Below, in pieces: positions 1,820-62,540 of a stretch of DNA of 64,000 bases. Positions within the stretch are counted from its first letter, which is position 1, and the number at the start of each line of letters is the position of its first letter. The notes below the pieces were generated by a model that did not search any database, was not told the DNA's origin, and worked only from the letters and a program-made list of their open reading frames with translations. The stretch comes from a virus (Duplodnaviria > Caudoviricetes), in the IMG/VR virus record IMGVR_UViG_3300044961_000667; one strand, written 5' to 3'. Made by a program: the position numbers and the translations under genes.

Positions 1820-2137
1820 TCAGTCCTCTTCGGACTCGTCGTCGTCAGCCTCGTCCGCCATGGATTCGATCCGCTGGCGAAGATCGTCGATGTTCCCAGT
1901 CTGGTGGCGGCCGGCAATCCACCCCTTCAGGTGCGGAATGATGTAGGCCGCCATCACGGGCTTCAATCCCGGAACGGAGCGGTACACCTCCTTGAGGGAC
2001 TCCAAAACATCCCTGATGCCCTCTTCGGCGTCATCGAGAGCGCTCAGCGCGGCATCGAAGTCAGAGCCAGGTCGAATCCCTTCGTGAAGCTCGCGCTTCA
2101 CGGACTCCAACAGCGTGTTGGTCTTCTTCAGGTTCAT
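1820..2137 (-). CDS. Hypothetical protein, LLESVK-leader family
   Basis: MNLKKTNTLLESVKRELHEG; GAGGAGG RBS. Confidence 0.75.
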   Translation of the reverse strand: MNLKKTNTLLESVKRELHEGIRPGSDFDAALSALDDAEEGIRDVLESLKEVYRSVPGLKPVMAAYIIPHLKGWIAGRHQTGNIDDLRQRIESMADEADDDESEED

Positions 2138-2152
2138 GGTTCCTCCTCTTGT

Positions 2153-2164
2153 GCAATCGATTGC
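2153..2164. promoter_or_regulatory. GCAATCGATTGC palindrome copy 2
   Basis: Exact 12-mer, 15 nt upstream of ATG 2137. Confidence 0.7.
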
Positions 2165-2171
2165 GCGTGCT

Positions 2172-2576
2172 TCAGCCGGCCTTGACAATGGCCCAGACGG
2201 CCCTGGCAACCTGGAGGCAGTCCGCCATCTCCTTCATCGCCATCTCGATGTCGCCCGCAGTCATGTTCTTCGGGTTGAATCCGTACCCGCCGATCTTCCC
2301 CGGCTCCAGGCCAACGCCAAGCTGCGCCATGCCGTGCGTGCCATGGATGTCGAACGTCTGGTCCATGCCCCATTGCTCGATGTTCTTCAGCACGCGATCG
2401 GCGCCGCCGTAACGATACTTTGCCCGCCCCGACGTCAGCGCGCGAGCGATCTTCTGGGCGAGAACGGGGTCGACCGAATCCGTAGCCTCCCCGATGTATC
2501 GCGAGGAGCGCCTGGCCGGATTCGCCAACTCCTTCTTCACCGACTCCAACAGGACATTCGTTCTCTTCAGATCCAT
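2172..2576 (-). CDS. Hypothetical protein, LLESVK-leader family
   Basis: MDLKRTNVLLESVKKELAN…IGEA. Confidence 0.75.
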   Translation of the reverse strand: MDLKRTNVLLESVKKELANPARRSSRYIGEATDSVDPVLAQKIARALTSGRAKYRYGGADRVLKNIEQWGMDQTFDIHGTHGMAQLGVGLEPGKIGGYGFNPKNMTAGDIEMAMKEMADCLQVARAVWAIVKAG

Positions 2577-2593
2577 GATTGAGTTCTCTTTCT

Positions 2594-3103
2594 TTACTTC
2601 GGGGCGGGCTTCGTCAGATCGCGATTGTTGTGCAGGTACGACGCGATTTGCTGGCTCATCGCGTACAACTGATTCGACAACCGCTTTGCGAACGCCTTGG
2701 CTTCGGGCACATCGCTGAACCGAGCCACCTGCGTGAGAGAGTGGGCCGCCTTGCCGTCGAACATCTCCACGCGGGCACGATCGAGAAAGTCATAGGTGTC
2801 CTTCGCGTCGTGGCCTGTCGCCTCGCCGAGGCTCTTGGACTTGCGCGGCCGGTTGCCGGGCGTGCTGGTCAGCTCGTCGTGAAGCTCTTCGAGCGCGCGA
2901 ATCGCGGCGTCGACCGGCGTCACGGAGATCATCGAGCCGAGCTTGCCCTTGTTGGCCCTCAGCTCCTTCACCATCTTCGCGACACGCCCCTCCCAGTTCG
3001 TGAGATCGGCGTCCAGGTCCTCCTTCACCGGGCGGCTACGCCCCGAGAGGCGGCTCTTCACGGACTCCAGGAGGGCGTTGGTCTTCTTCGGGTCCACGGG
3101 CAT
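2594..3103 (-). CDS. Hypothetical protein, LLESVK-leader family
   Basis: MPVDPKKTNALLESVKSRLSG…VKED…LGEA; GAGGAG RBS. Confidence 0.75.
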   Translation of the reverse strand: MPVDPKKTNALLESVKSRLSGRSRPVKEDLDADLTNWEGRVAKMVKELRANKGKLGSMISVTPVDAAIRALEELHDELTSTPGNRPRKSKSLGEATGHDAKDTYDFLDRARVEMFDGKAAHSLTQVARFSDVPEAKAFAKRLSNQLYAMSQQIASYLHNNRDLTKPAPK

Positions 3104-3109
3104 GTCTCC

Positions 3110-3169
3110 TCAGAAGCAGCAGCTATCACGATAGCCGCACTTGGGGCACTTGTCGTCTGTCGGCTTCAT
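3110..3169 (-). CDS. 19-aa mini-ORF duplicating the C-terminus of 3556-3753
   Basis: MKPTDDKCPKCGYRDSCCF*; ATG overlaps the endonuclease stop (ATGA). Confidence 0.5.
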   Translation of the reverse strand: MKPTDDKCPKCGYRDSCCF

Positions 3170-3552
3170 GCGACCCTCAATGCGTTGACGTTTGGACGAG
3201 GACGCTTGAGGTACGCCTCAGCCAATGGTTGGAGCCCTCGCTCCACGCCCCCAATGAACCAGTTGCAGAACGCACACAGCAGCCCTCTGACGTCACCGGT
3301 CTGATGATCGTGGTCGACATGCAGCAGCGCCCTGAAATTGCCAGGCAGTTTCTCTGGCGCCTTGCCGCAACAAGCACAGACTCCGCCCTGCTTTTCAAGC
3401 AGCGAGTCGTACACCTCGGCGGTGATGCCGTACCGCTTCTTCAGGGTGTGGGTCCGCTTGCGATCGTACGACGCCGCCATCCATCGCTCGTGACCGACTG
3501 GGTCACGAGCGATCCTGGCCTTGGTCCATCTGGCGTTCGTCGACTTAGTCAT
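3166..3552 (-). CDS. Endonuclease VII-family (His-Me) homing endonuclease
   Basis: RYGIT…QGGVCACCG…VDHDHQTGDVRGLLCAFCN. Confidence 0.9.
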   Translation of the reverse strand: MTKSTNARWTKARIARDPVGHERWMAASYDRKRTHTLKKRYGITAEVYDSLLEKQGGVCACCGKAPEKLPGNFRALLHVDHDHQTGDVRGLLCAFCNWFIGGVERGLQPLAEAYLKRPRPNVNALRVA

Positions 3553-3555
3553 GAC

Positions 3556-3753
3556 TCAGAAGCAACACGAGTCCCGATAGTGACACTTCGGGCAAATGTA
3601 GTGCGCGTGTTCGGGCTTCATCGTCGTCGAGCACTGGGGGCACGACGTCGACAAGTCGCAGCTCGCCGGCTTTTCTTCCGTCAGCACTCGCGCGTTCGAC
3701 GGCTGGCGCGAGCGCTGCGGAAGCTCCTCTGTGATCAGTCCCGGCTTTTGCAC
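3556..3753 (-). CDS. Small CPxC zinc-ribbon protein
   Basis: CPQCSTTMKPEHAHYICPKCHYRDSCCF; start uncertain. Confidence 0.6.
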   Translation of the reverse strand: MQKPGLITEELPQRSRQPSNARVLTEEKPASCDLSTSCPQCSTTMKPEHAHYICPKCHYRDSCCF

Positions 3754-3762
3754 CGGGCCAAT

Positions 3763-4080
3763 CTACGCGGCCTGGTTTTCAGATTCAAGAGCGTACTCCT
3801 TCAGAGCCAGCTCGACGGCCTCAGCCTGCTGCTCCGAGGTGTGCTGCTTGAAGTGCACCTTTCGCCGGCTGTGGGCGATGAGCTGGTACAGCCGACTGGC
3901 GTGCTGCTTCTCGGCTTTCAGCCGGGCGATCGTGCCAGGCGTGAACTTCTTGAACGTCGGGTCCCAGCTGCCGCTCTCCAGTCGCGGCTGATGCGACTCG
4001 CGGAGAATGCCCTTCAGCATCTTGATCTCCGCCTCGATGTCCTTCCGGTCCTGGTGCAGCTTCTTCAGGTTCAGCTTCAT
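3763..4080 (-). CDS. Hypothetical protein
   Basis: 105-aa ORF with AAGGAG RBS, tightly packed. Confidence 0.65.
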   Translation of the reverse strand: MKLNLKKLHQDRKDIEAEIKMLKGILRESHQPRLESGSWDPTFKKFTPGTIARLKAEKQHASRLYQLIAHSRRKVHFKQHTSEQQAEAVELALKEYALESENQAA

Positions 4081-4093
4081 GGCCTTCTCTCCT

Positions 4094-4420
4094 TCAACGA
4101 AGCAAGGAGAGCCGCCCGAGCGCCCTCCTCACGGTGGGGGTTCGGACGGTGGGCACGATGCCCAACGCCATGAGCGCGCCGTTGAAGGGCGCGTCGGGCT
4201 CTCTGATGGCTGTGTGCGGGATGCCGAGACGCTGAAGCTCGGCTTCGAGCCGAAGCAGCTCCTCCTCGTCGGAGACGGCAAGAGCAACAGCTCTGGTACT
4301 CGGGGGGACTTGCTCGCGGACGGACTCGCCGGCCGCGTGAATCGTCTGGGCAACCTGCACCCCTGGGGGCAGGTCTCGCCTCAAGACGACGTAGTGGTAC
4401 AGCGGCTCTTCGTTACAGCA
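4094..4420 (-). CDS. Peptidyl-tRNA hydrolase PTH2-like protein (no canonical start before the conserved N-terminal motif)
   Basis: PLYHYVVLRRDLPPGVQVAQTIHAAGE…ALAVSDEEEL…IREPD…LMALGIVP…LGRLSLLR. Confidence 0.75.
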   Translation of the reverse strand, partial: CCNEEPLYHYVVLRRDLPPGVQVAQTIHAAGESVREQVPPSTRAVALAVSDEEELLRLEAELQRLGIPHTAIREPDAPFNGALMALGIVPTVRTPTVRRALGRLSLLR

Positions 4421-4451
4421 CTACCTGGCTCAGCGACATGTGCTTCTCCTT

Positions 4452-4979
4452 TCAGCGCCCACGACGGGACTCGAACCCGCTTCGACGACGATGGGTTCTT
4501 TCAGCATGGCAGTTGGCACAAACAACCTCGCACTTCGCCAACTCCATTCTCACATCTTCCTCTGAACGGGCGTGGTTGACCATCCTCGACACGTCGTCTT
4601 GCTTCGTTCCCCTGACGTGATCAAACTGCATCACCCACGGCCCATACTGATGGCCACAGTCCGTACACGGCGTCGTGCTCTTGATCTCGTTGGCGATCTT
4701 GCGAAGCGTTTCACGCTTGATCGACTTGTACGCCCTGTTCTTGTCGACGTACTTCTGGTGATTGGAGCGGTAGTGCTTTCGCGAACCCTTCTGCATGCAC
4801 ACCCGACATCGCGAATGCCGCAGCGTCGGCTTCCTCTTCCAGTTGAAGTCGTCCTCTGACTTGAACCGTTCGCATCCGGAGCACCACTTCTGAACGCCCC
4901 CGGCGGGAATCGAACCCGCAACCCGTTCGCCTGTAGTCGGCGACAGCTCTGCCAGTTGAGCTACGGAAGCATCTTCCAC
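4452..4979 (-). CDS. HNH endonuclease whose reading frame runs through a tRNA-like sequence
   Basis: CSGC/CRVC, PCTDCG…FDHVRG…KCEVVCANCHAERT; the only plausible start (GTG 4979 after GGAG) precedes the tRNA at 4895-4970. Confidence 0.8.
   Translation of the reverse strand: MEDASVAQLAELSPTTGERVAGSIPAGGVQKWCSGCERFKSEDDFNWKRKPTLRHSRCRVCMQKGSRKHYRSNHQKYVDKNRAYKSIKRETLRKIANEIKSTTPCTDCGHQYGPWVMQFDHVRGTKQDDVSRMVNHARSEEDVRMELAKCEVVCANCHAERTHRRRSGFESRRGR
4456..4480 (-). pseudogene. 3' half (T arm + acceptor strand) of a split tRNA
   Basis: GCGGG TTCGAGT CCCGT CGTGGGC G; pairs 6/7 with acceptor strand at 5026-5032. Confidence 0.65.
4895..4970 (-). tRNA. tRNA-like gene with central CTA in a non-canonical anticodon loop
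   Basis: GCTTCCG/CGGGGGC acceptor, GCTC/GAGC D stem, TCGCC-GACTACA-GGCGA, GCGGG-TTCGATT-CCCGC; lacks U33 and purine 37. Confidence 0.6.
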
Positions 4980-4986
4980 ATCATCT

Positions 4987-5032
4987 CCGTCCACCTGTAG
5001 TCGGCGGTTGCTCGCCTATGAGCTACGAGGGC
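4987..5032 (-). pseudogene. 5' half of the split tRNA (same GACTACA loop)
   Basis: GCCCTCG TA GCTC ATAGGC GAGC AA CCGCC GACTACA GGTGG, no T arm follows. Confidence 0.65.
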
Positions 5033-6981: not shown

Positions 6982-7524
6982 TCAGTCTTCCAGCTCGGTG
7001 TTCCAGTACGCCACCGAGGCGAGCCACTGCTTCCACGGCTCGGGCATGCCCTTCTTCCAGGTGAAGGTGAGCCGCACCGACTCGGGCAACGACTTCGGCT
7101 TCACCGGCACCTGCAGGAGCTTCATGCCTGCCTGCGCTGGCGTCCGACCGCCCTTCTTCTGGTTGCAGGGCGTGCACGACACCACGATGTTCTCCCACGT
7201 CGTGTGGCCGCCCTGCGTGCGCGGGACGACGTGGTCGTACGTGAAGTCGTGCCTGGGCACCTTCGCCGAGCAGTACTGGCACTTGCCCTTGTCTCGCGTG
7301 AAGACGTTCTCGCGACTGAACTTGATCGCCTTCTTCTTGCCGCGGATCGCCCGGAGGAACCGGATCACCGACGGCACCTTGAACTCCAACGTCATCGAGC
7401 GGACGGTCTTGTCCTCGTACTCCTCGACGACTTCCACCTTCTCCTCCCAGAGGAGGGTGATCGCCCGTTGCCAGCTCACGCGGGCAACCGGGGTGTAGCC
7501 AACATCGAGCACCAGCGTTTCCAC
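6982..7524 (-). CDS. HNH endonuclease (McrA-like bacterial family)
   Basis: LVLDVGYTP…SWQRAITLL…PSVIR…FSRENVFTRDKGKCQYC…TYDHVVPRTQGG…WENIVVSCTPCNQKKG. Confidence 0.9.
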   Translation of the reverse strand: METLVLDVGYTPVARVSWQRAITLLWEEKVEVVEEYEDKTVRSMTLEFKVPSVIRFLRAIRGKKKAIKFSRENVFTRDKGKCQYCSAKVPRHDFTYDHVVPRTQGGHTTWENIVVSCTPCNQKKGGRTPAQAGMKLLQVPVKPKSLPESVRLTFTWKKGMPEPWKQWLASVAYWNTELED

Positions 7525-7562
7525 GTTGCCCGTCCTTTCTGCGGCCTTCGCCGCGGTGAGTG

Positions 7563-7647
7563 TAGTCCCGGCCGGACTCGAACCGGCACGGCCTTTGTGG
7601 CCACTGGGGTTTGAGCCCAGCGCGTCTACCGACTCCGCCACGGGACC
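7563..7647 (-). tRNA. tRNA-Leu(CAA)
   Basis: CTGGG-CTCAAAC-CCCAG, long variable arm. Confidence 0.88.
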
Positions 7648-7652
7648 ATCTG

Positions 7653-7741
7653 TGCTCGGGGCGAGACTCGAACTCGCATGAGGCTTTCGCCCCACCGGCT
7701 TCTGAGGCCGGCGTGTCTACCGAAGGTTCCACCACCCGAGC
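7653..7741 (-). tRNA. tRNA-Leu(CAG)
   Basis: CCGGC-CTCAGAA-GCCGG. Confidence 0.88.
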
Positions 7742-61816: not shown

Positions 61817-62148
61817 CTGGCCGCCTTCGCGAGCTTCTCGTACTCGCGCTGCTTCTTCGGGTTGTCCTTCTCCATCGCGTGCTTCATGTTTGCCCGCGAG
61901 CCCTTGCCGGTCGACTTCACGGCCTCTCCTCGCCCGCCGGACTTCAGGTAGCCCGAACGGCGAAGATGCGCATGGCAGATGTTCCGCGAGCCACGCGCCT
62001 TGGCCCGATCGCTTCCCGACAGCTTCTTGGAGACCGCCACCATGCAGTGGCGAACCTGGGCGCCGGTCTTGTCGGGCTTCTCCGCTCCGGAGTCGCCAGT
62101 CGTGTCCTCGAACAGTTGGTCGAGGCTGATGTACGCGCTCTCGCTCAT
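61813..62148 (-). CDS. Basic hypothetical protein
   Basis: 111 aa, coupled on both sides. Confidence 0.65.
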   Translation of the reverse strand: MSESAYISLDQLFEDTTGDSGAEKPDKTGAQVRHCMVAVSKKLSGSDRAKARGSRNICHAHLRRSGYLKSGGRGEAVKSTGKGSRANMKHAMEKDNPKKQREYEKLAKAAR

Positions 62149-62540
62149 CCGGAATGCCTCTCAAGATACTCGGCTGCAAGGCGAAGCACATCAGGTCGCT
62201 CCTTGAACTTCGCCAAGCCGTTGTTGCAGAAGTCGCAGAGCAACGAACGGAGCTTCCCAGTCTTGTGATCGTGGTCTACCGAGAAGAACTTCTTGTTCGC
62301 CCCTGGGTCGCCTGACCCACAAATCGCGCAGACGCCTCCCTGTGCCGCGAGCATCGTCTCGTACTGCTGGTGAGTGATGCCGTACCGACGCCGCAGGTTC
62401 CAGTTGCGGAAGTACATCGGATCTTCAGCCTGCCGCTTGGCAGACTTCGCACGAACCTTGGCAGCGTTTCGCGCGTAGTACGCCCTCTCGGCCACCCTCG
62501 CCCGCTCTCGCTTTTCGCTTTGAAGGATCGCAGTTCGCAT
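62145..62540 (-). CDS. Endonuclease VII-family homing endonuclease
   Basis: RRYGIT…QGGVCAICG…VDHDHKTGKLRSLLCDFCNNGL…AAEYL. Confidence 0.9.
   Translation of the reverse strand: MRTAILQSEKRERARVAERAYYARNAAKVRAKSAKRQAEDPMYFRNWNLRRRYGITHQQYETMLAAQGGVCAICGSGDPGANKKFFSVDHDHKTGKLRSLLCDFCNNGLAKFKERPDVLRLAAEYLERHSG

Follow-up and report, generated by a model that had tools for sequence, protein, structure and literature searches.

Homing endonucleases are thought to persist in genes mainly by way of self-splicing introns or inteins, or by residing between genes. In T4-type phages, split genes are the described outcome of an endonuclease landing in a gene (PMC2988022). For fungal mitochondrial genes, mORF gene hybrids have been described, the first in atp6 of Allomyces macrogynus (Paquin, Laforest and Lang 1994, PNAS 91:11807, as cited in PMC3630166) and others in atp6, atp9, cox2 and nad3 of Glomus sp. 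(PMC3630166). In these fungal hybrids the native C-terminus matches that of an element-free relative and the inserted C-terminus is 64-81% identical in DNA and 94-100% identical in protein (PMC3630166); endonuclease-driven mobility of the Allomyces element was shown biochemically, according to the account given in PMC3630166. On the enzyme side, the DHHRN family was proposed from F-CphI, in which the motif residues are essential by mutagenesis, and its pattern comprises CX2-4C, DHDH, a conserved Arg, and CX2C followed by Asn (PMC6083498). Here we describe a phage locus that we read, with high confidence, as a free-standing homing-type endonuclease cassette inserted in the 3' end of a zinc-ribbon gene, which the cassette restores with its own copy of the gene end.

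The window, by which we mean the whole stretch of 64,000 nucleotides that was analysed, is a G+C-rich part of a large phage genome and holds 38 tRNA genes and a tmRNA gene. Proteins found in the window are also encoded on a contig of ~200 kb, and the source is a roughly 200-kb myxophage-like phage; among deposited phages the only DNA match was to Myxococcus phage Mx1, with 69% identity across the peptidyl-tRNA-hydrolase gene. The locus consists of four packed reading frames, all on the minus strand, with neighbours that overlap stop to start or sit 3-6 nt apart. The zinc-ribbon gene (65 aa, 3556-3753), defined by the ORF list and the family alignment, is followed by an Endo VII-motif endonuclease gene of the DHHRN type (128 aa, 3166-3552), assigned by Pfam PF02945 and PHROGs, the ATG of which lies 3 nt beyond the zinc-ribbon stop. 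The endonuclease stop overlaps, as ATGA, the ATG of a mini-ORF of 19 codons plus stop (3110-3169), which ends 6 nt ahead of the start of a downstream gene for a 169-aa protein without a family match (2594-3103). Scanning 2400-4500 for promoters and terminators revealed no promoter-like or terminator-like site.

The initial annotation had pointed to 3110-3753 as an endonuclease gene flanked by a duplicated C-terminus, and both these coordinates and the shared end of the upstream gene and the mini-ORF were borne out by the ORF list and a repeat search. The 65-codon gene ends in MKPEHAHYICPKCHYRDSCCF, and the product of the mini-ORF is MKPTDDKCPKCGYRDSCCF. When the shared 12-residue end was written as a degenerate DNA pattern, the 64-kb window gave exactly two matches, compared with none in 100 shuffles. 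In the repeat search the duplication appeared as a 48-nt direct repeat (3109-3156 and 3555-3602) with 73% identity and a spacing of 446 nt, the longest identical run between both repeats being 10 bases. Across the last 13 codons, the two copies differ at 12 of 39 nt, seven of them at third positions (69% DNA identity), and in only two residues; the 11 residues kept include all four Cys there. When 12 substitutions were introduced at random, not one of 200,000 trials preserved the protein as well.

Parts of 2400-4400 are present in public sequencing runs, four of which were aligned on 2000-5000. In run X5, a wastewater metagenome, a 123,753-nt contig covers 2750-3150 and then directly 3597-4483, so that exactly 446 nt are skipped; contig positions 116789 and 116790 adjoin at the joint with no letters between, and depth over 3212-3514 is zero. 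The X5 phage is otherwise 95-99% identical to the window over the aligning parts. Run X17 contains both forms: the cassette together with its two junctions lies on a contig of 558 nt (16 differences), and the empty joint on one of 112 nt. Two further runs were set aside: X6 has no depth over the cassette, its contigs ending at 3153 and beginning at 3597, and was not counted as a bridge, and X3 leaves 3458-3635 uncovered and was not counted as evidence for the empty allele. A 31-mer assembler cannot have jumped between the repeats or collapsed them, because no stretch of identity between them exceeds 10 bases. The empty allele as described here is known from Logan contigs aligned to the window.

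When 3597-3753 is joined to 3110-3150, as in X5, the product is an in-frame gene of 198 nt, again with 65 codons, whose terminal residues are MKPEHAHYKCPKCGYRDSCCF. A single difference, Lys for Gln at position two, separates this end from that of the closest relatives (L010 and L017-L019). In its last 13 codons the X5 allele is at least about 95% like the downstream copy, a lower bound in which six of the 18 differences in 2750-3150 are not itemised. The inserted cassette accordingly comprises 446 nt (3151-3596, minus strand), delimited by X5, which joins 3150 to 3597, and by the same joint in the short X17 contig; its ends are ambiguous by 3 nt, with ACA present at both junctions. Insertion took place within the repeat, where the Tyr codon (52) meets the Lys codon (53), and each copy is therefore a chimera. 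In the full-length gene, native codons 1-52 (3597-3753, minus strand), continuous with the endonuclease-free X5 contig, are followed by the element-borne, re-spelled codons 53-65 plus stop (3556-3596, minus strand). In the mini-ORF, the last 13 codons and stop (3110-3150, minus strand) are the displaced native end: they are continuous with the endonuclease-free contig, specify the same residues as in L010, L017, L018 and L019, and keep their native junction to the next gene, whose start and ribosome-binding stretch follow the native stop. Only the first six codons of the mini-ORF belong to the element. The initial annotation had implied that the mini-ORF carries a likely recoded copy of the target; a re-spelled copy does exist, but the X5 joint places it in the last 13 codons of the full-length gene and not in the mini-ORF tail.

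The cassette also contains, at its 3' end, a decayed copy of the left flank of the target (3151-3169, 19 nt, minus strand), which supplies the ATG and first six codons of the mini-ORF. Its 8-nt ATGAAGCC recurs in the native left flank at an identical frame and position, after which a 6-nt gap and divergence follow, and the invariant PEHxH is absent. This segment may derive from an old full duplication or may be the start of a neighbouring gene of the donor.

The family to which the interrupted gene belongs was traced with a degenerate DNA pattern, which located the gene at 18 loci: four viral contigs, 11 metagenome contigs (which re-include the three largest of the viral ones) and three contigs from Kofleriaceae MAGs. 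All 18 have a single copy of the gene end, and at an E-value threshold of 1e-3 none of these gene loci matched Endo VII. In an alignment of 13 distinct members, seven Cys, the PEHxH stretch and the terminal run from Tyr to Phe are invariant. Among 1.8 billion representatives, a profile search identified 179 clusters, all of small proteins with the motif at the very C-terminus. An Atlas search gave generic small zinc-finger clusters only, and the Pfam and NCBIfam matches were weak zinc-finger ones. A word-index search with the 65-aa protein gave no match, and a back-translated search of viral contigs for it yielded none that was confirmed. We also considered the tail of a split class II ribonucleotide reductase, suggested by weak NCBIfam matches (E 0.01-0.09) to the C-terminal end of the models, and rejected it since the profile search gave stand-alone small proteins only. 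In phage relatives the gene is found near a PTH2 gene, beside tRNA-like stretches, and in the MAG relatives it is found among cellular genes. The closest relatives occur in MAGs of Kofleriaceae (Myxococcota), at L017 502-993, L018 4951-5172 and L019 about 939-1340, where the L018 gene has cellular neighbours, among them those for an efflux pump, a transporter and a histidine kinase. These bacteria and their likely phages have the small-protein family in common.

Comparison within this family also bears on the origin of the carried end. In DNA it has five differences to L007 and six to each of L003/L011 and L008/L013, as against 12 to the native copy, and all of these are H-type alleles from other phage lineages, with His where the native end has Gly; the native end is nearest to L010/L017, with five differences. 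The 42 nt available for this comparison point weakly, though consistently, to another lineage as the source of the carried end.

From these sequence comparisons the empty allele is taken as ancestral and the cassette as the insertion, because the joint on 3 nt recreates the family consensus and because the distant relatives are all single-copy. The proposal in the initial annotation that the endonuclease came in by insertion, and that the duplication goes with it, is supported, as relatives without the endonuclease are single-copy and a near-identical phage lacks exactly the 446 nt. The annotation had suggested looking for endonuclease-free alleles in relatives, and such alleles were found; relatives with both copies and no endonuclease, which it had named as the result that would contradict it, were looked for as well and were not found. 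The opposite polarity, in which the endonuclease-free form arose by secondary deletion through repeat recombination from an ancestor with the cassette or with a plain tandem duplication, draws on the direct repeats that flank the nuclease gene, on the capacity of such repeats to mediate deletion and on the small number of strains sampled. Recombination of this kind, however, would be expected in the longest common runs (10 nt at the stop and 8 nt at the ATG) and would leave a pure upstream- or downstream-type end, whereas the joint seen in X5 falls on a match of 3 nt and reproduces the end common to L010 and L017-L019. As 18 of 18 more distant relatives are moreover single-copy and without the nuclease, we consider secondary deletion very unlikely.

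The alignments to these runs showed further differences around the cassette. Divergence from X5 is strongly asymmetric on its two sides, with 18 differences in 401 nt over 2750-3150 (about 4.5%) and only four over 3597-4483 (about 0.5%). Inside the 169-codon gene, X5, X6 and X17 have a 76-nt patch (2673-2750) of equal length whose divergence prevents alignment. The same three runs join 2139 to 2594 with 11 other letters between and are without the 134-codon gene at 2172-2576, a second presence/absence difference beside that of the cassette. This gene is part of a tandem set (~1124-1285, 1820-2209, 2172-2576 and 2594-3103), the products of which all begin with a shared (K/R)TNxLLESVK. On the other side, 4483 and 4609 are separated in X5 by 5,126 other letters, at an HNH gene (4452-4994) and an odd tRNA-like gene (4894-4971), and at this site the window phage and the X5 phage carry different insertions.

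We then examined the endonuclease itself. It matches the Pfam family Endonuclease_7 (PF02945) with an E-value of 2.4e-19 and 69.5 bits (cut-off 23.6), residues 35-115 aligning to positions 2-80 of the 82-position profile, and PHROG 2914 (endonuclease VII) at 6.8e-27. Residues C59/C62, D80 H81 D82 H83, R89, C93/C96 and N97 form a complete DHHRN motif, and C59/C62, D80, H81, H83, R89, C93/C96 and N97 are invariant in an alignment of 12 homologous sequences. The motif is located in the C-terminal half of the protein, like that of the endonuclease clade in PMC6083498 and unlike that of the resolvase clade described there. The C-terminus is equal in length to those of the homologues, and the junction therefore did not truncate the enzyme. 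A variant with 91% identity and the same last four residues (P0016) is encoded on a 968-nt contig from another sample, and a further protein, P0018, on a 36-kb contig. Relatives in viral contigs reach at most 60% identity over short segments (52% at the top-ranked locus), and no donor genome was found among them; a sequence search of the PDB with the endonuclease gave no match.

Two familiar carriers of homing endonucleases were considered and rejected for this gene. An Rfam scan of 2400-4500 with E-values up to 1 returned four chance-level matches and no intron family, and an intron-borne ORF is discounted because no intron RNA was found there and because the ORF comes after a stop codon and a complete C-terminus. 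An intein is discounted because the nuclease is out of frame with the host protein, its ATG lying 3 nt beyond the stop of the host gene, and because no Hint domain was matched.

A second Endo VII-motif gene is found in the window at about 62145-62540 (minus strand), directly after a 240-codon structural-looking gene; its product is 44% identical and has the same DHDH and CxxCN blocks, and it may be another free-standing endonuclease or the resolvase of the phage. Other endonuclease genes lie in and around the tRNA array, all on the minus strand: 253-984 is GIY-YIG-like by sequence motif, 4452-4994 encodes an HNH enzyme according to PHROG, and 6982-7695 encodes an HNH enzyme according to a tblastn match to an annotated HNH gene of Mx1. 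The region of the tRNA array is unusually rich in such genes.

The membership of the enzyme in PF02945, a family that includes the resolvase T4 endonuclease VII (PMC6083498), raises the possibility that it is a housekeeping junction resolvase and not mobile at all, with the duplication as a by-product of an unrelated rearrangement, since Endo VII-family proteins can also resolve Holliday junctions. Such a function is difficult to reconcile with a phage that is 95-99% identical over the aligning parts and does without the gene, with the C-terminal position of the motif, as in the endonuclease clade, and with the placement of the gene inside a coding sequence for whose displaced piece it brings a replacement. 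The cassette endonuclease also need not be the only resolvase candidate, because the window contains the second family member. Overall, we judge the resolvase explanation to be highly improbable. Least probable of all is that the mini-ORF is a working small peptide, a zinc-ribbon paralogue and not a remnant, for although it is open, in frame, coupled on both sides, provided with an ATG start and intact in its last 13 residues, it is without the first Cys-x2-Cys pair and the PEHxH that are invariant in the 13 aligned members, a separate ORF of this kind is present in no relative, and its codons simply form the gene end in the empty allele.

The reading we favour is thus that of an endonuclease cassette that landed in the zinc-ribbon gene and completed it. 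Because the carried codons 53-65 and stop are in phase with codons 1-52, the interrupted gene still yields a full-length protein. In order to rationalise how such a cassette might spread, we looked to homing endonucleases (PMC2988022) and the Allomyces element (PMC3630166), by analogy with which the enzyme would cut the empty allele at or near the Tyr/Lys codons. In a mixed infection, the broken ends would then pair with the outer halves of both repeats in the occupied genome, and everything between would be copied in. Both junctions are at the same target point, which fits repair from an unresected break there. Neither junction of the occupied allele would be expected to rebuild the site, such that the carrier would be immune: compared with the target, the left junction differs at six of the first 17 positions on its right and the right junction at nine of 16 positions on its left. 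We regard this cleavage-and-immunity part of the reading as evenly balanced. The divergence of the repeats should also hinder loss of the cassette through recombination between them.

The tight packing of the four frames suggests how expression might be coordinated. Through the stop/start chain, nuclease expression may depend on translation of the host gene, and the mini-ORF may serve to carry ribosomes to the native stop, so that the coupling of the next gene would be kept. In the 5' coding part of the endonuclease, just before an internal ATG (codon 25), the repeat search identified a perfect 13-bp hairpin with a 5-nt loop (3483-3513), and the predicted RNA fold of 3450-3600 has an energy of -59.8 kcal/mol (z -2.5). 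This hairpin could act as a throttle on translation of the nuclease or could be a protein-binding palindrome.

Both halves of the target are carried, the right one re-spelled under protein constraint and the left one decayed, the gene is completed, the site would be destroyed at both junctions, loss would be resisted and coupling would be kept. Such a combination might speak for an adapted design and not for one accidental illegitimate repair, an idea that we put forward tentatively and hold to be somewhat less probable than its converse. Unrelated viral contigs also contain Endo VII-motif genes flanked by duplicated gene starts (L024 2295-2810 and L023 2884-3410). In L024, a 17-codon upstream stub resembles the start of the 230-codon downstream gene, and in L023 the first ~25 residues of the nuclease copy the start of the next gene, which is itself ahead of a large-terminase-like gene. 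At a further locus (L031 2732-3790), two paralogous small genes stand on either side of an Endo VII-motif gene. If the adapted design is true, then taken with L023 and L024, replacing what is broken would join introns and inteins as a third general means by which phage endonucleases reside in essential genes.

The free-standing phage endonuclease described here has a different solution to persistence within a gene, a spare re-spelled end of the gene that it interrupts, which has so far been documented for fungal mitochondrial genes. With both alleles present in public metagenomes and the insertion point defined to 3 nt, the locus provides a predicted target for an uncharacterised Endo VII-type enzyme, and it offers a naturally occurring case of nuclease-linked synonymous recoding. 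For annotation it carries two cautions: a short 'orphan' ORF behind a phage endonuclease gene can be the displaced end of a gene, and the gene next to the endonuclease can finish in foreign codons. A full-text literature search for this design in phages returned fungal papers only, which is no proof that no phage report exists, and the word stem 'duplicat' is absent from the review PMC2988022.

The kind of system is known, and what is new is the phage host, the Endo VII (DHHRN) nuclease family and the tiny scale. In its catalytic motif, the C-terminal position of that motif and its nature as a small free-standing phage protein, the endonuclease is like F-CphI of cyanophage S-PM2 (PMC6083498), a likeness that is drawn by motif. 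As with mobE in nrdA of Aeh1 and mobA in the T4 topoisomerase gene 39/60 (PMC2988022), a free-standing endonuclease occupies a conserved coding sequence without loss of function of the host gene; unlike in those cases, where two gene pieces are left that reassemble as polypeptides (PMC2988022), here the carried end completes the gene and the original end is discarded. The closest likeness in arrangement is to the fungal mORFs, with a gene core, a foreign C-terminus in phase, an endonuclease ORF and the native C-terminus downstream. As in the fungal cases, a close relative has the uninterrupted gene without exactly the element (X5, with X17 holding both forms), the native end matches that of the element-free relative, and the inserted end is much more diverged in DNA, with its protein sequence kept. 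Unlike the fungal mORFs, the element resides in a phage, uses an Endo VII/DHHRN nuclease and replaces only 13 codons, and its cassette additionally includes the decayed copy of the left flank and is embedded in a chain of four reading frames.
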